Notes under the pieces: generated by a model
Database searches by the model: none
The model's input: only the letters and a program-made list of their open reading frames with translations
Told to the model about the DNA's origin: nothing
Shown here: positions 25,234-31,002 of the stretch, piece by piece
How positions within the stretch are numbered: position 1 is the stretch's first letter
How the letters are laid out: the number at the start of each line of letters is the position of its first letter
Made by a program: the position numbers and the translations under genes
Source: Candidatus Eiseniibacteriota bacterium
GTDB taxonomy: Bacteria > Eisenbacteria > RBG-16-71-46
Direction of reading: 5' to 3'
Length of the DNA stretch: 64,000 nucleotides
Assembly: GCA_963707915.1 (NCBI GenBank)
Contig: OY970178.1
Span: 2,464,001 to 2,528,000 of the forward strand

Positions 25234-26714
25234 CCGCAGCGCCCCCGGCGGCCCCGGCCCTGCCCCGCTGGCGGGTGTTCCCCGCGCTGGCGCTGGGCAC
25301 GGTCATGGCGGTGCTCGACATCAGCGTGGTCAACATCGCGCTGCCCACGCTGTCGCGCACGTTCGGCGTGCCGCTCACGTCGATCGAGTGGGTGGTGCTC
25401 GCCTACGTGCTCACGATCAGCGGACTGCTGCTCACCATGGGCCGGCTCGCGGACTTCGTGGGCCGCCGCCGCGTCTACGGCGCCGGGCTGACGCTGTTCA
25501 TGCTGGCCTCGGCGCTGTGCGCGGCCGCGCCTTCGGCCAACCTGCTGGTGGCCGCGCGGGCGCTGCAGGGCCTCGGCGCCGCCATGATGTCCGCCAACAG
25601 CACCGCGCTGCTCATCGCCGCCTTCGGGCCCGAGGAACGCGGGCGCGCGCTCGGCGCCTTCGGCGCGATGGTGGGCGTGGGGCTGGCGCTCGGCCCGCCG
25701 CTCGGCGGCATCCTGGTCGGGCACTTCTCGTGGCGCTGGATCTTCCTCATCAACCTGCCGGTCGGGCTCTTCGCCCAATGGCAGCTCTGGACGATGGTGC
25801 CGGGCGATCCCCCGGGCCGCCGCGAGAGCCTGAGCCTCGCGGCCGCCGCGCTCTGGTGCGGCGCGCTGGTGGCGGTGACGCTCGCGCTCTCGCGGGGCCC
25901 CGCGCACGGCTGGGGCGACACGGGCGTGTGGCCGCTCTTCGTGCTGGCCGTCGTGCTGCTGGCGCTGTTCGCCCGGGACGAGGCGCGCGCGCGGCACCCG
26001 CTGCTGCCGCTCGACCTGCTGCGCGGGCCGCTCGGGATCGCGACCACGCTGACGCTGGTCGTGAACGGGCTCTCGATCAGCGTCGGCTTCCACCTGCCGC
26101 TGTACCTCGAGGAGGTGCTGCGCTTCGACGCTGCCCGGAGCGGGCGCTGGCTCGCGGTGCTGCCGCTGCTCGCGCTCGTCCTGGCGCCGCTCGCCGGGCG
26201 CTGGTCCGATCGCATCGGGACGCGGGCGCTGTCGGTCGCCGGCATGCTGCTCGCCGCCGCGGGCTTCGCGGTGATGTCGCAGGTCGGCACGACCCCGCAT
26301 CCCGGCCACATCCTCGGCGGGATGGCGTTGATCGGCGCCGGCATCGGCATCTTCACGGTGCCCAACTCGAGCGCCGCGATGGGCAGCGTGCCGCCCGAGC
26401 GGCTGGGCCTGGCTTCGGGGCTGCAGGCGACCATGCGCAACCTCGGCATCGCCTCGGGCGCGGCGGCGATGGCCGCGATCGTGGCTTCGCGCTTCGCCGC
26501 GCACGGCGGCGGGACGCTGGCGGCGGCCGCGCACGGTGGGGCAACGCACCCACTGGCCTTCGCGCTGGCCACCCGCGACGCCTACCTGGTCATGGCGGCC
26601 GTCGCGGTGGCCGCGGCGGCGCTGTCCCTGCGGCAGGCGGGCGGGGCGCGGCAGGGCCCGGGGGCACGGCTCCAGCGCCACGATTTGTCCTTGGCGCCAC
26701 GGGCGGATCGCTGA
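25230..26714 (+). CDS. MFS drug:H+ antiporter (DHA2/EmrB-like)
   Basis: LDISVVNIALP, GRLADFVGRRR, RALQGLG, WRWIFLINLPVG; GTGA overlap with the permease. Confidence 0.92.
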   Translation: MTAAPPAAPALPRWRVFPALALGTVMAVLDISVVNIALPTLSRTFGVPLTSIEWVVLAYVLTISGLLLTMGRLADFVGRRRVYGAGLTLFMLASALCAAAPSANLLVAARALQGLGAAMMSANSTALLIAAFGPEERGRALGAFGAMVGVGLALGPPLGGILVGHFSWRWIFLINLPVGLFAQWQLWTMVPGDPPGRRESLSLAAAALWCGALVAVTLALSRGPAHGWGDTGVWPLFVLAVVLLALFARDEARARHPLLPLDLLRGPLGIATTLTLVVNGLSISVGFHLPLYLEEVLRFDAARSGRWLAVLPLLALVLAPLAGRWSDRIGTRALSVAGMLLAAAGFAVMSQVGTTPHPGHILGGMALIGAGIGIFTVPNSSAAMGSVPPERLGLASGLQATMRNLGIASGAAAMAAIVASRFAAHGGGTLAAAAHGGATHPLAFALATRDAYLVMAAVAVAAAALSLRQAGGARQGPGARLQRHDLSLAPRADR

Positions 26715-26723
26715 GACAATCAT

Positions 26724-26991
26724 GGGAGTGCTCTGAGGATCCGGGTCTCCACCGGCCCGCCACCCGCGTTTGGCAGACGCGGGAGGCCGGACCTGGGTCC
26801 GGTCCTTCGGGGCGAGTTCGGAGGCCACCCCGGGCAGTAAAGACGGGTCCGCACGACCCCTGCCCCGCGGCGGCGCGGAAGCAGCGATGCGCGGCGATCA
26901 AGCGTCGCCACCCTGCGTCCCTCCTGAACGGCACGGGCGGCTGCCCGCCCGCGAGCAGACGGGATCGCCCGGGTGTCTCCCGGGCGATTTT
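26724..26991 (+). ncRNA. candidate large structured ncRNA of unknown family
   Basis: Intergenic between convergent genes; nested stems with G-U pairs; TTGGCG-N18-GACAAT upstream; terminator at the 3' end (see findings). Confidence 0.55.
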
Positions 26992-26992
26992 C
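26964..26992 (+). terminator. intrinsic terminator
   Basis: ATCGCCCGGG-tgtct-CCCGGGCGAT followed by TTT. Confidence 0.7.
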
Positions 26993-27014
26993 GTCGCGGG
27001 GCGGGTCGCTCCCG

Positions 27015-27632
27015 TCAGGGTCGGCGCGTGGAGCGCTCGAGGAGCCCCGCGAGCAGCGCGAGCGCGACACCGGGCGCGGGCGGACGCCCGGTGCGGACCG
27101 TGCAGGGTCCCGCGACGGCATTGAGCAGGACCAGCGGCAGGCGATCGCCGGCGCGGAGCGGCGCGGGCACGGACGGCAGCGCCGAGCGCACCGCGGCCTC
27201 GGCCACCGAGGCCACGCGCGGACGGTCGTCCGGCGCGCAGACGAAGCGCGCCCCGTCCCAGCCGAGCACGGCGGCCACGCAACTCTCGTAGATCTCGTCC
27301 CCGTCCGACGAGGTGAGCAGCGTGGCCACCCCCGGCCGGCGCATGCCGTCGTACGGGCTCGGCGGGGCCGGCTTGGGGAACCCGCCGCGGCCCGCGGCGA
27401 ACGGCGAGACCGCGAAACGCACCGGCAGGCCGTCGGCGAGCCGCGAGCCGGCGCGCCGCTCGGCCCGCAGCTCACCGCCCGTCACGGTGACGGCGTAGAT
27501 GCCGGGCCGGGCCTCGCGCGCGAAGCGGGCGAACGCGGCCCGTCCCGCCGCGCCTTCCGGCGCGAGCCGGTCGACGTGGAAGTCGTGGAGCACCACGCCT
27601 GCGCCGGTCACCCGCAGGGTGGTGTACGTCAT
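27015..27632 (-). CDS. short aminotransferase class IV / aminodeoxychorismate lyase (PabC)-like protein
   Basis: YTTLRV...HVDRL fold-type IV N-terminal motif, candidate PLP Lys in FPKP, EIYES, LLNAV; coupled to pabB. Confidence 0.65.
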   Translation of the reverse strand: MTYTTLRVTGAGVVLHDFHVDRLAPEGAAGRAAFARFAREARPGIYAVTVTGGELRAERRAGSRLADGLPVRFAVSPFAAGRGGFPKPAPPSPYDGMRRPGVATLLTSSDGDEIYESCVAAVLGWDGARFVCAPDDRPRVASVAEAAVRSALPSVPAPLRAGDRLPLVLLNAVAGPCTVRTGRPPAPGVALALLAGLLERSTRRP

Positions 27633-28612
27633 CGCAGCGCCCCCAGCTTCACGTGCAGCTCCTCGCGCTCCCGGCCCGGGTTCGAGTCGTGGACGATGCC
27701 GCCGCCGACCCCGTAGACCCAGCCCGCGGCGTCGCGGACGGCGGTGCGGATCAGCAGGCTGGCGGTCGTCCGCCCGTCCGCCGTGAAGCCGAGCGCGCCG
27801 CAGTACGCGCCGCGCGGCGACGGCTCGAGCCGCCCGATCATCGCCCGGGCCGCCCGCTTCGGCGCGCCGGTGACGGAGCCGCCCGGGTGCAGCGCGTCGA
27901 GCGCGTCGAGCGCGGTCACGCCGGGCAGCAGCTCGCCCCCGACGTCGCTCACCGTCTGCGTCGCGTAGGGCAGGTGGACGAAGCGGCGCTCGTCGCTCAC
28001 CACGACGCTGCGCGGCCGGCACAGGGGCGTGAGATCGTGGCGCACCAGGTCGGTGATCATCGCCAGCTCGGCCCGGTCCTTGTCGCTGGCGGCCAGCGTC
28101 CCGGCGCCCTCCGGGCGCGCCGTGCCCTTCATCGGCTCCGAGCGGATCCGCCCGCCACCGGTCTCGAAGAGCAGCTCCGGCGAGGCCGAGACGAACTCCG
28201 CGCCGCCGGGCAGCCGCACCCACGCCGCGAAGCGCGGCAGGCCGCGGGCCGCCATCCGCGCCAGCAGCGCCGCACCCGGCACCGGCGCCAGCCGCGCACG
28301 GACCGTGAGGCACACCTGGTAGACGTCGCCCGCGGCGATGGCCTCGCGGATCTCCTCCACGGCCGCGGCGTGCCCGGTGGCGTCGAGCCGCGGCTCGAGC
28401 GTGGCGGGCGGCGGCAGCTCGAGCTCGTCCACCGAACGAAGGTCTCCGTCGAGGAGCACGGCGTCGCGGCCGCGGCCCTCGTAGGGCGCGAAGAAGAGCC
28501 GCGGCGCGCGCGGCGCGGCGCGCAGGCCGGTGAGCAGCACGGCTTCGCCCGCGCCGAAGCCCGGTCCCAGGAACGCGAACGCCGGCAGCGCATCGAGGTC
28601 CGCGAGCCTCAC
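27629..28612 (-). CDS. pabB: aminodeoxychorismate synthase component I (chorismate-binding)
   Basis: IAAGDVYQVCL, SASPELLF, PMKGT (Lys as in PabB PIKGT, not TrpE PIAGT), MITDLVRHDL, GSVTGAPK. Confidence 0.82.
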   Translation of the reverse strand: MRLADLDALPAFAFLGPGFGAGEAVLLTGLRAAPRAPRLFFAPYEGRGRDAVLLDGDLRSVDELELPPPATLEPRLDATGHAAAVEEIREAIAAGDVYQVCLTVRARLAPVPGAALLARMAARGLPRFAAWVRLPGGAEFVSASPELLFETGGGRIRSEPMKGTARPEGAGTLAASDKDRAELAMITDLVRHDLTPLCRPRSVVVSDERRFVHLPYATQTVSDVGGELLPGVTALDALDALHPGGSVTGAPKRAARAMIGRLEPSPRGAYCGALGFTADGRTTASLLIRTAVRDAAGWVYGVGGGIVHDSNPGREREELHVKLGALR

Positions 28613-29172
28613 GCGAGCCCCCGGAAGAACGCCTCGATCATCGCCGCGCCGCGGGGGGTCGCGTACGAGTCCGGGTGGAACTGCAGGCCGGCCATCGGCA
28701 GCTCCTCGTGCTCCACCGCCATGACGACGGCGTCCTCGCTGGTCGCGACCACGCGCAGCGGGCGGGCGACGTCCGCGAGGGCCAGCGAGTGGTAGCGCAT
28801 CACCGCCTGGGGGCCGGCGAACGCGGCGAACAGGCGCGCGCCCGCGAAGGTCGCCACCGACGGCTTCCCGTGCCGGGGCGGCGTGCGCACCAGGCGGGCC
28901 CCGAAGGCCAGGCCGATGGCCTGGTGCCCGAGGCAGATGCCGAGCGTGGGGAGCCGCCGCGCGGCCGCCGCGCGGGCCACGGCGACGAGCCCGGCGCGCT
29001 CCGGGTCGGTCGGGCCCGGACCGATGACCAGCGCGTCCGCGGCCGCCAGCAGGTCCGGGCGCGCCGCGACCTCGCGCCCGGGGACGACCGTCACCTCGTC
29101 CCGCCGGCACGGCAGCCGGTCGATCACGTTCCACGAGAAGGAATCCTCGTTCTCCAGGAAGAGCACGCGCAT
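28609..29172 (-). CDS. pabA: glutamine amidotransferase, ADC/anthranilate synthase component II
   Basis: NEDSFSWN, IGPGPTDP, GICLGHQ, HGK, RYHSL, QFHPDS. Confidence 0.85.
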   Translation of the reverse strand: MRVLFLENEDSFSWNVIDRLPCRRDEVTVVPGREVAARPDLLAAADALVIGPGPTDPERAGLVAVARAAAARRLPTLGICLGHQAIGLAFGARLVRTPPRHGKPSVATFAGARLFAAFAGPQAVMRYHSLALADVARPLRVVATSEDAVVMAVEHEELPMAGLQFHPDSYATPRGAAMIEAFFRGLA

Positions 29173-29292
29173 GGGACTGCAGGGAAGCGCAAGCGCGGGC
29201 CGGGCACAAGCCCGCGGACGCGCCCGGCCCGCCGATCCCCCCCCGCGGCGGCGCTTGCGCCCCCGTGCGCGACCCCGCACAATCGCGCCGCG

Positions 29293-31002
29293 ATGCGTTC
29301 CCTGCGACTCGGCCTGGCCCAGCTCAACCCGACGGTCGGCGACCTCGACGGCAACTTCGAGCGGATCGTCGCCGCCGTCGGGCGCGCCCGCGCCCTCGGG
29401 GTGGAGGTGCTGGCCTTCCCCGAGCTGGCGATCACCGGGTATCCGCCCGAGGACCTGCTGCTCAACCCCTCGTTCGTCGAGCGCGCGGTCCGGCGCACGC
29501 GCGACCTCGTCCCCCACTCGGCGGGCATGACCCTGGTGGTGGGCACGGTGGAGCGCGAGGCGGAACTGTTCGACGCGGCCGCGGTGCTTCACGACGGCCG
29601 CTGGGCGGGCAGCTATCGAAAGCACCACCTGCCCAACTACGGCGTCTTCGACGAGAAGCGCTACTTCACGCCGGGTCGCGGGAACGCGGTGTTCGTGCGT
29701 GACGGCGTGACGCTCGGCGTGAGCATCTGCGAGGACATCTGGTTCCCCGGCGATCCGATCGAGGAGCAGGCGGCGTGCGGCGCCGAGTTGCTGCTCAACC
29801 TGTCGGCCTCGCCGTACCATGCGGGCAAGGCCGGCGAGCGCCGCGGCATGCTGGGCACGCGCGCCACCGACTACCGGGCGATCGTCGCCTACGTGAACCT
29901 GGTGGGCGGGCAGGACGAGGTGCTCCACGACGGCGCGAGCATGGTCCTCGGGCCCCGGGGCGAGTCGTTGGCCGAGGGCGCGATGTTCGCGGAGGACCTG
30001 GTCGTCGTCGACCTCGACCTCGACGCGGTGTCGGCCGCCCGGCGCGGCGCTTCGCCGCCGCGGGAACGGGGGAACGCGGGGCCGGCGCGCATCGGGCTGG
30101 CGGCGTGCACGGGGACCGCGAAACCGGCGCTGGCCGCGCCCCCGGTCCCCGCGGCCCGCGCGCCCGAGGCCGAGGTCTACGACGCGCTGGTCCTCGCCAC
30201 ACGCGACTACGTGCGCAAGAACGGGTTCGACACGGTCGCGCTCGGACTCTCCGGGGGCATCGACTCGGCGCTCTGCGCCTGCATCGCCGCCGACGCGCTC
30301 GGACCGCGGCAGGTGGTGGGCGTGAGCATGCCCGGCCCGTACAGCGCGGGGATCTCGCGCGAGGACGCCGAGGCGCTGTGCCGCGCGCTCGGGCTGCGCT
30401 TCTACGCGATCCCGATCGGGGACGTCTTCGAGTCGTACGGCCGCGCGCTGGCGCCGGCCTTCGCGGGCCGCGCGCGCGACGTCACCGAGGAGAACCTGCA
30501 GGCGCGCATCCGCGGGAACCTGCTGATGGCGCTGTCGAACAAGTACGGCTGGCTGGTGCTCACGACCGGCAACAAGAGCGAGACCTCGGTGGGCTACAGC
30601 ACGCTCTACGGCGACACGGCGGGCGGCTTCGCGGTGCTGAAGGACGTCTACAAGACCATGGTCTACCGGCTCGCGCGGCACCGCAACGGGCGCTCCGCCG
30701 CGATCCCGGAGCGCACGCTCACGCGCCCGCCCACGGCGGAGCTCCGGCCGGACCAGCTGGACCAGGACACGCTGCCGCCCTACGAGGTGCTCGACGCGAT
30801 CCTCGAGGGCTACGTCGAGGAGGACCGCTCGGCGGCCGAACTGGTCGCGGCCGGCCACGACGAGGCGACCGTGCGCCGCGTGATGCGCATGGTGGACGCG
30901 TCCGAGTACAAGCGCCGCCAGAGCCCGCCGGGCGTGAAGATCACGCCGCGCGCCTTCGGCCGCGACCGCCGCCTGCCGATCACCAACCGCTGGCGGGGGT
31001 AG
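29293..31002 (+). CDS. nadE: glutamine-dependent NAD+ synthetase
   Basis: Nitrilase domain (FPEL, ICEDIW) fused to LSGGIDS, ENLQARIRG, TTGNKSE, YKRRQ. Confidence 0.96.
   Translation: MRSLRLGLAQLNPTVGDLDGNFERIVAAVGRARALGVEVLAFPELAITGYPPEDLLLNPSFVERAVRRTRDLVPHSAGMTLVVGTVEREAELFDAAAVLHDGRWAGSYRKHHLPNYGVFDEKRYFTPGRGNAVFVRDGVTLGVSICEDIWFPGDPIEEQAACGAELLLNLSASPYHAGKAGERRGMLGTRATDYRAIVAYVNLVGGQDEVLHDGASMVLGPRGESLAEGAMFAEDLVVVDLDLDAVSAARRGASPPRERGNAGPARIGLAACTGTAKPALAAPPVPAARAPEAEVYDALVLATRDYVRKNGFDTVALGLSGGIDSALCACIAADALGPRQVVGVSMPGPYSAGISREDAEALCRALGLRFYAIPIGDVFESYGRALAPAFAGRARDVTEENLQARIRGNLLMALSNKYGWLVLTTGNKSETSVGYSTLYGDTAGGFAVLKDVYKTMVYRLARHRNGRSAAIPERTLTRPPTAELRPDQLDQDTLPPYEVLDAILEGYVEEDRSAAELVAAGHDEATVRRVMRMVDASEYKRRQSPPGVKITPRAFGRDRRLPITNRWRG

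Follow-up and report, generated by a model that had tools for sequence, protein, structure and literature searches.

A 64,000-nt stretch of the genome of a Candidatus Eiseniibacteriota bacterium (GenBank assembly GCA_963707915.1, contig OY970178.1, positions 2,464,001 to 2,528,000; hereafter the window) contains what comparison with related genomes indicates is a real, uncatalogued and family-specific structured RNA gene. The element lies on the forward strand at window positions 26727–26993 (contig positions 2490727–2490993), and its predicted transcript of ~268 nt has ends that follow from a promoter and a terminator. It is best read as a stand-alone gene, running from promoter to terminator, for a stable and highly folded non-coding RNA (ncRNA) that, we infer, forms an independent transcript stopping at its own terminator. 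An initial annotation, made by a model from the letters of the window, had proposed an undescribed multi-domain RNA here with its own start and stop signals. That proposal holds: the RNA belongs to no Rfam family, is not a transfer-messenger RNA (tmRNA), RNase P RNA, signal recognition particle (SRP) RNA or 6S RNA, and has a promoter and a terminator that are conserved across 28 genera. The elements that the annotation listed are all present where it placed them, and every one of the 62 base pairs in its nine drawn helices can form in the window as a canonical or G-U pair. Its fold fared unevenly across the family: the closing helix of the second domain, the GGGCAG/CTGCCC helix with its bulge and the GGGTC/GACCC hairpin stand, and the middle helices of a long first-domain rod, the registers drawn for one arm (arm B) and a pseudoknot do not.

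A single-copy RNA found throughout one bacterial family

To our knowledge, Candidatus Eisenbacteria has no cultured member, and a literature search combining Eisenbacteria with RNA motif found no described ncRNA from this group. The source genome is a single contig of 3.62 Mb that is 94.8% complete. A DNA search returned full-length matches with 70–81% identity in seven of seven congeners and partial matches in three other genera, reaching 20 of 61 genomes overall. R1, a 181-position covariance model built on the 3′ domain, matched 58 of the 61 sampled family genomes and all 28 of 28 genera, nearly always once per genome; the three genomes that it did not match are 65%, 92% and 83% complete. 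Fifty loci collected with R1 form the homolog set that underlies the promoter, fold and motif counts given below. When the sampling was widened, R1 matched 25 of 25 family genomes and none of 95 genomes from 17 other families of the class, and 29 of 29 family genomes and none of 51 others from the phylum, the no-match counts including one unpublished genome (G038). Applied with filters off to 16 nadE loci from 15 genomes of ten other families, the model returned noise (best 13.9 bits, E 0.11). A pattern scan of public genomes followed by R1 gave at least 22 true matches among 80 loci, all in metagenome-assembled genomes (MAGs; 16 labelled Candidatus Eisenbacteria, five uncultured bacterium and one Saccharimonadaceae); the remaining 58, from other phyla, are palindromes that match by chance. 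On these comparisons, the RNA appears confined to one family of Candidatus Eisenbacteria, of which practically every sampled member carries it once. Second R1 matches above 50 bits occur at G062:C104:18575-18707 (65 bits), G063:C5:14031-14227 (52 bits) and G081:C491:2799-2972 (87 bits); they could be paralogues, strain mixtures or MAG contamination.

Within the source genome there is one full-length copy, and other matches are at most 41 nt long with E values of 0.0018 or higher. Because it is single copy, the element is not a repeat, which also disposes of the miniature inverted-repeat transposable element (MITE) that the initial annotation had named as the explanation to exclude. The region is also, by its composition, not coding: G+C content over the three codon positions is flat (0.72/0.76/0.73), as compared to 0.75/0.56/0.96 in the adjacent transporter gene. 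A stop-codon test is uninformative at this G+C content (~75% in the window), with only four of the 50 homologs having stops in all six frames.

Searches against Rfam 15 at gathering thresholds gave no matches anywhere in the 64-kb window. With E values up to 10, the interval 26500–27200 yielded only sub-threshold matches of terminator and small hairpin models to the 3′ end of the RNA (the best being ftsZ-DE, 20.8 bits against a threshold of 72.2, and Rhizobiales-2, 22.1 against 40), and 20 homologous loci likewise gave only sub-threshold matches. The 6S, SRP, RNase P and tmRNA families (RF00013, RF00169, RF00010 and RF00023) are each found once, with scores above their cut-offs, elsewhere in the genome, at 810963, 3389774, 554071 and 2978832, respectively. 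A 2026 preprint that reportedly maps prokaryotic non-coding space (10.64898/2026.10.21.760802) might cover this RNA family.

A conserved promoter and an unusually invariant terminator

Upstream of the RNA, the hexamer TTGGCG (26691–26696) is followed by an 18-nt spacer and then by GACAAT (26715–26720). Hexamers at −35 and −10 that are 16–19 nt apart and conserved in homologs are the signature of sigma-70-type promoters, and on this evidence the element is a conserved promoter of that type, predicted to have CTTGGCG at −35, TGnGACAAT as an extended −10 and a spacer of 18 nt. Among the homologs the −10 is GACAAT or CACAAT in 40 of 50, with TG two bases 5′ in 23, and its columns are invariant in a MAFFT alignment (A1). 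The commonest −35 form is CTTGGCA; the spacer is 18 nt in 27 homologs and 17 nt in 12, and seven of the 50 have no TTG at the correct spacing. AAATTT- or AAAAA-type tracts lie in the homologs at the place where the window has an A/T-richer tract (Table 1), with a mean A+T of 0.41 over 21 nt, compared to ~0.3 for the genomes. A regulon defined by the motif CTTG-N20-23-ACAAT was considered and set aside: the genome has only 13 sites, too few to define one. Eleven of the 13 fall outside a crude coding mask, and of six permuted control motifs five gave 2–8 sites genome-wide and the sixth gave 52. No similar promoter was seen upstream of the 6S, SRP, RNase P or tmRNA genes of this genome.

At the other end of the gene, a G+C-rich hairpin (GATCGCCCGGG/CCCGGGCGATT, 26963–26989) is followed by TTTCG. 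This combination of G+C-rich hairpin and U-tract is that of an intrinsic terminator, and the U-tailed hairpin that the initial annotation had placed here is supported across the family. The stem comprises 11 bp and is followed by ATTTTCG in the window and by GTTTTCGTTT in relatives; seven of 13 pairs never vary over 49 distinct sequences, and the loop-adjacent pair covaries freely. A consensus scan of the window did not list a forward-strand terminator, probably because extension of the stem uses part of the T-run. The 7-bp palindrome of the terminator occurs 33 times in the genome and, by eye, only ~3 of these have a T-tail. Because the 3.6-Mb genome holds only 24 perfect 7-bp G+C-ended hairpins with a T-rich tail, canonical intrinsic terminators seem rare in it, and this RNA carries one. 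A further hairpin, H6, lies just upstream (Table 1). An assignment to the dual hexaloops of ANTAR-type RNAs was rejected: by eye, H6 loops range from 3 to 8 nt and are not conserved.

Table 1. Features of the RNA gene and its surroundings, in window coordinates
Feature	Position	Strand	Description
A/T-richer tract ACGATTTGTC	26680–26689	+	just 5′ of the −35, at the position of an UP element; putative UP role
−35 element CTTGGCG	26690–26696	+	TTG 17–19 nt from the −10 in 41/50 homologs (by script)
Extended −10 TGA-GACAAT	26712–26720	+	TGA doubles as the stop codon of the MFS gene
RNA	26727–26993	+	predicted start 7 nt past the −10, to end of U-tract; homologs 257–288 nt, median 268
5′ domain	26730–26813	+	P1 26730–39/26803–13 (includes outer helix of the initial annotation); apical helix 26763–69/26777–83, loop TTTGGCA
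P3 hairpin CCGGAC-CTGG-GTCCGG	26787–26802	+	pairs 26787–92/26797–802
3′ domain, three-way junction	26816–26929	+	closed by H1 26816–24/26920–29, U26925 bulged
Arm A	26825–26878	+	H2 26825–29/26873–78; H3 26832–37/26860–65; bulge TAAAGAC 26838–44; H4 26845–49/26855–59
Arm B rod	26877–26920	+	base GGAAGCAG/CTGCGTCC; apical stem 26891–95/26904–08; loop GATCAAGC with invariant CAAG
H6 hairpin CGGGCGG-CTGC-CCGCCCG	26934–26951	+	90.4% of cells paired; 4/7 pairs compensatory
Intrinsic terminator ACGGGATCGCCCGGG-TGTCT-CCCGGGCGATTTTCG	26960–26993	+	99.1% of cells paired; stem unusually invariant
nadE promoter-like element CTTGCGC-N17-CACAAT-N9-ATG	29243–29295	+	context, outside the RNA

The 3′ domain is a conserved three-way junction

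Alignment of the homologs indicates that the 3′ domain is well conserved and is predicted to form a three-way junction with GNRA-capped hairpins, a GUAAAG bulge and a CAAG loop. In an alignment of the 50 sequences fitted to the model (A3), 92.5% of cells are paired and compensatory changes are seen at 25 of 45 pairs; the domain has a covariation score of 0.281, compared to at most 0.068 when the partners are slid against each other, and none of 500 shuffles reaches the score. The helix that closes the junction, H1, is the multibranch closing helix of the initial annotation (GTTCGGAGG/CCTCCTGAAC), and it is upheld, with 94.1% of cells paired and compensatory changes at seven of seven pairs. In arm A, helices H2, H3 and H4 are paired in 82–99% of cells with three, four and three compensatory pairs, respectively, in agreement with the proposed GGGCAG/CTGCCC helix with its TAAAGAC bulge and GGGTC/GACCC hairpin. 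The motif GTAAAG is found in 42 of the 50 homologs, as compared to 0.03 occurrences per shuffled RNA.

Arm B forms one hairpin of at least 9 bp in the minimum free energy fold of 44 of the 50 homologs, and its CAAG columns are kept in 48–50 of 50. In a partner-swap test its two strands match each other better than strands exchanged between homologs do: the mean z-score is −1.0, with the native pair among the top three in 16 of 50. At the tip of the arm, the GCGGC/GTCGC register is paired in 87% of cells and the GGCGAT/GTCGCC register that had been drawn initially in 62%, so the former replaces it. The CGCAC loop, which had been suggested to form a pseudoknot with one of two other segments, is not conserved and is replaced in most relatives by a GNRA-type loop (by eye); because of this, the proposed pseudoknots are left without support.

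Base pairing also fixes the strand. G-U pairs far outnumber A-C mismatches (190 cells to 31, or 81 to 31 when the terminator is left aside), which places the structure at the RNA level on the forward strand, as the many G-U pairs in the window had implied.

The 5′ domain evolves faster

The sequences further indicate that the 5′ domain evolves faster than the 3′ domain and that its predicted topology differs between genera. The feature that recurs is the hairpin P3, which in a sequence-only alignment of all 50 homologs is paired in 84.9% of cells, with compensatory changes at five of six pairs and a covariation score of 0.370 (at most 0.103 with partners slid; 0 of 500 shuffles reach the score). 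Its loops are mostly C-GUGA or C-GAGA, that is, of GNRA type (by eye), and P3 was the only helix recovered by RNAalifold from MAFFT alignments of the 5′ domain. Over 11 sequences the enclosing helix P1 is paired in 71% of cells, with compensatory changes at six of its ten pairs; for the apical helix the share of paired cells is 81%. In a partner-swap test, 17 of 50 sequences have their native P1 strands among the top three partners, where ~3 are expected; this test was used in place of one against mononucleotide shuffles, in which P3 was mis-detected in several sequences and P1 duplex energies were weak (mean z −0.83, 11 of 50 below −2).

The initial annotation had drawn this domain as one long rod. 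Its outer and apical helices hold within the genus; its middle helices (26737–46/26791–800 and 26752–57/26785–90) are not conserved across the family and are excluded by the competing P3. Taken whole, the rod is paired in 49.3% of cells over the 50 sequences and in 47.4% in shuffles, a comparison that is blind to helices that shift position. Two short motifs recur in this part of the RNA. In most genera (for example at L055, L062 and L072, and not in the window) ACTTGCG or ACTTACG lies just past the −10, where the RNA starts, and again within the 5′ domain. AACGGGA is found in this domain and also flanking the terminator; 13 of the 50 RNAs have it twice or more.

Genes around the RNA and its relation to nadE

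The RNA lies in a 300-nt gap (26715–27014) between convergent genes. Upstream is a forward-strand MFS transporter gene (Pfam MFS_1, E 2e-60) with its stop codon TGA at 26712–26714, and downstream is a reverse-strand open reading frame (ORF) ending at 27015; this ORF, for which Pfam gave no match, is preceded on its strand by a chorismate-binding (pabB-type) gene. The initial annotation had excluded a riboswitch leader on the ground that no forward-strand gene follows. That is true of the lineage of the window; elsewhere, nadE, encoding a glutamine-dependent NAD synthetase, is the next gene on the same strand in 45 of the 50 loci and begins 53–190 nt past the terminator in 37. Of the five loci without nadE in the available DNA, two have the pab cassette, one reaches a contig end, and two have no nadE within 1.5 kb. 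Because nadE follows the RNA in most relatives, exclusion of a riboswitch must rest on other grounds.

Such grounds come from the sequence in between. Of the 45 loci with nadE, 44 have an element of the form TTGNNN-N17/18-(C/G)A(C/G)A(A/C)T-N6-12-ATG past the terminator and leading up to nadE; in 34 of these the gap from its −10 to the ATG is 9 nt. The element stays with nadE where the RNA is 302–2300 nt away, and in sister families that lack the RNA a −10-like TAGGAT is seen (by eye) equally far from the nadE start codon. This geometry implies that nadE mRNA would be nearly leaderless and would start from its own predicted promoter. A riboswitch lies in the 5′ untranslated region (UTR) of its gene with no promoter in between, whereas here a promoter-like element intervenes. 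In addition, reverse-strand genes separate the RNA from nadE in at least seven genomes and were inserted at least twice. One insertion is the pab cassette (the window, L040 and L042); in the window the reverse-strand cluster spans 27015–29209 and contains the pabB-type gene, the Pfam-less ORF downstream of it and a glutamine amidotransferase gene upstream (by eye). This cluster is shared with two congeners (G004 and G005) and absent in the others, and it looks like a lineage-specific insertion. In the same spot, other loci have a reverse-strand c-type cytochrome gene (CxxCH; L060 1741–2514, L068 1747–2529, L073 1712–2488 and L087 1705–2364). At the insertion loci the RNA is kept, with compensatory changes and R1 scores of 79–163 bits. 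Because of the promoter-like element of nadE and the opposite-strand insertions, the RNA is best read as its own transcription unit.

No conserved antiterminator competing with the terminator was seen in A3, which was inspected by eye only and without a systematic search; the nearest candidate, the 5′ strand of H6 against the 5′ strand of the terminator, has an A-C mismatch in most genera. At five tightly spaced loci (L048, L062, L067, L070 and L076) the T-tract of the terminator lies ~10–20 nt before the nadE −35; speculatively, it would there occupy the position of an UP element for nadE. A literature search on nadE and structured RNAs led to two mentions only: one paper places the M23 motif once upstream of nadE (PMC5737381), and the paper on the raiA motif reports nadE as a control for quantitative PCR (PMC10861870).

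Possible modes of action

What this RNA does may be approached through its shape. The extent of conserved structure, its GNRA caps, invariant unpaired motifs of a few nucleotides and a terminator hairpin that does not vary suggest an RNA that acts in trans by its shape, and we regard it as an even chance that it is a stand-alone trans-acting structured RNA, most likely one that partners or decoys a protein. The RNA would act through its folded 3′ domain, either in complex with protein, as the RNA component, or as a protein decoy; the likeliest contact surfaces would be the invariant terminator hairpin and the unpaired conserved GUAAAG and CAAG, and action as a nadE leader or by long antisense pairing is not envisaged. 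Hfq (PF17209), ProQ (PF04352) and the Ro protein (PF05731, TROVE) were not found in the 94.8%-complete source genome (G000), which fits such a shape-based action and leaves no sign of the Ro ribonucleoprotein of Y RNAs. RNAs that partner or decoy proteins include 6S RNA, Y RNAs and raiA motif RNA. 6S RNA is a rod with a central bubble. Like it, the RNA described here is housekeeping-like, single copy and stable, with protein binding established for 6S and proposed here; unlike it, this RNA has a junction fold and no match to RF00013, and the genome has its own 6S RNA at C1:810963-811183 (71.2 bits). The raiA motif RNA is an orphan structured ncRNA of Firmicutes and Actinobacteria. It resembles this RNA in being stand-alone, at least ~200 nt long, strongly covarying, without an assigned function and usually beside a single neighbour gene, but phylum, fold and neighbour gene all differ, and this RNA is found in one family only. 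Rfam 15, which presumably holds a raiA model, gave no match.

Several observations weigh against this interpretation. The trans-acting complex is reached by exclusion and by analogy, with a partner that is only proposed, and the ten sequencing runs listed for the locus are all DNA metagenomes with small shares, with no RNA run among them. Synteny with nadE is strong, and the terminator may allow read-through into that gene. A stricter consensus promoter scan of the window called no promoter. The folding z-score of −2.22, which the initial annotation had named as a check, is weak and no better than that of the opposite strand (−2.44; on each strand three of 200 shuffles fold as well), leaving the comparative evidence to carry the case. 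With regard to that evidence, A3 is an alignment fitted to the model, which biases its pair counts towards that structure, and the sequences are related, so counts of shuffles overstate significance; the 22 titled homolog records are all MAGs. Arm B is moderately supported, the two registers of its base being paired in 57% and 67% of cells (A1) with neither clear, and P1 is evident in about half of the homologs (25 of the 50 have a partner-swap z below −1, and 15 have one above 0). Finally, the GGAACGGGACTTGCG that is conserved in most genera is missing from the RNA of the window.

The position of the RNA suggests a different reading, a cis-acting nadE leader in the form of a riboswitch or a protein-controlled attenuator, whose fold would sense a signal such as an NAD-pathway metabolite or glutamine status and set the degree of read-through past the terminator into nadE; the copy in the window would have been orphaned by the pab insertion. 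The frequency and closeness of nadE, the terminator directly before it and a junction with conserved unpaired nucleotides reminiscent of an aptamer are all consistent with this. However, the promoter-like element keeps a fixed geometry before the nadE ATG even where the RNA is distant, families without the RNA have a comparable −10-like box, and the RNA is under selection in the genomes in which reverse-strand genes precede nadE; moreover, no conserved antiterminator pairing was seen by eye, the terminator stem is invariant rather than tuned, and no Rfam riboswitch matches. We therefore consider a leader unlikely. The NAD+-I riboswitch, or nadA motif, is built of tandem ~50-nt domains, and the RNA described here is much larger. 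Like that riboswitch and other NAD-pathway leaders, this RNA adjoins an NAD biosynthesis gene and ends in a terminator (PMC10702441). It departs from the riboswitch in having no Rfam match, in the promoter-like element that nadE has for itself and in persisting where it is uncoupled from nadE. A base-pairing small RNA, with the CAAG loop, the GUAAAG bulge or a 5′ CUUGCG as seed and the remainder serving stability, strikes us as quite improbable: a layout that runs from promoter to terminator and closes with a 3′ hairpin and U-tail is what that class typically shows, and short invariant unpaired motifs are present, but the conserved unpaired stretches are only 4–6 nt long, at least 45 conserved base pairs and GNRA-capped arms exceed what a seed needs, and neither of the chaperones of Hfq- or ProQ-dependent RNAs was found encoded. 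It is doubtful, and a long shot, that the 3′ junction is a trans-acting sensor of a ligand or protein (for example an NAD-pathway or nitrogen metabolite) recruited beside nadE, which would control nadE or other genes without being in their mRNA, or else a new ribozyme or RNA-only assembly.

Taken by itself, a catalytic or self-assembling RNA, either a new ribozyme or an RNA-only complex, is very unlikely. The multi-domain fold, the GNRA loops, the conserved bulge and possible loop-loop contacts are suggestive of it, as is a candidate contact in which a 5′-domain CUUG would form 4 bp with the CAAG loop, for which covariation is uninformative as both are invariant; the RNA of the window nevertheless has no CUUG in its 5′ domain, its size is modest, and the 5′ domain varies too much to make up a catalytic core. 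Sequestration of CsrA can be given only a slight chance. The genome encodes CsrA (G000:C1:1186222-1186380, reverse strand, 91 bits), and AACGGGA lies at the terminator flank, with its second copy in some RNAs; however, A(N)GGA motifs show no enrichment over shuffled sequences (0.84 vs 0.92 per RNA), GGA is enriched only mildly (7.2 vs 5.5), and the motifs are not presented in hairpin loops, so the many loop-exposed A(N)GGA motifs of a CsrA sponge are not seen despite the presence of CsrA. CsrB, RsmY and RsmZ, which fold as a series of GGA hairpins, share with this RNA the promoter-to-terminator unit and a CsrA gene in the genome; here there is no A(N)GGA enrichment and the fold is a conserved junction. 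Least credible of all is the absence of any RNA function, with the locus acting at the DNA level or being a remnant in decay: in principle, a protein could use the terminator palindrome as its operator, but compensatory changes preserve RNA helices, G-U pairs outnumber A-C mismatches, and the element is conserved in every one of the genera.

Implications

Its covariance model aside, which can be used to annotate this RNA in new MAGs, the RNA is a ready candidate for biochemistry and for listing among orphan structured RNAs, given its strong promoter, GNRA-capped arms and heavy covariation. If the sensor reading or the ribozyme or RNA-only reading were true, the RNA would represent a class of bacterial RNA with a new kind of function, found in one family of an uncultured phylum. 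That it is kept as a single copy in nearly all sampled genomes of a family of 28 genera suggests that this RNA likely has a central role in these bacteria.

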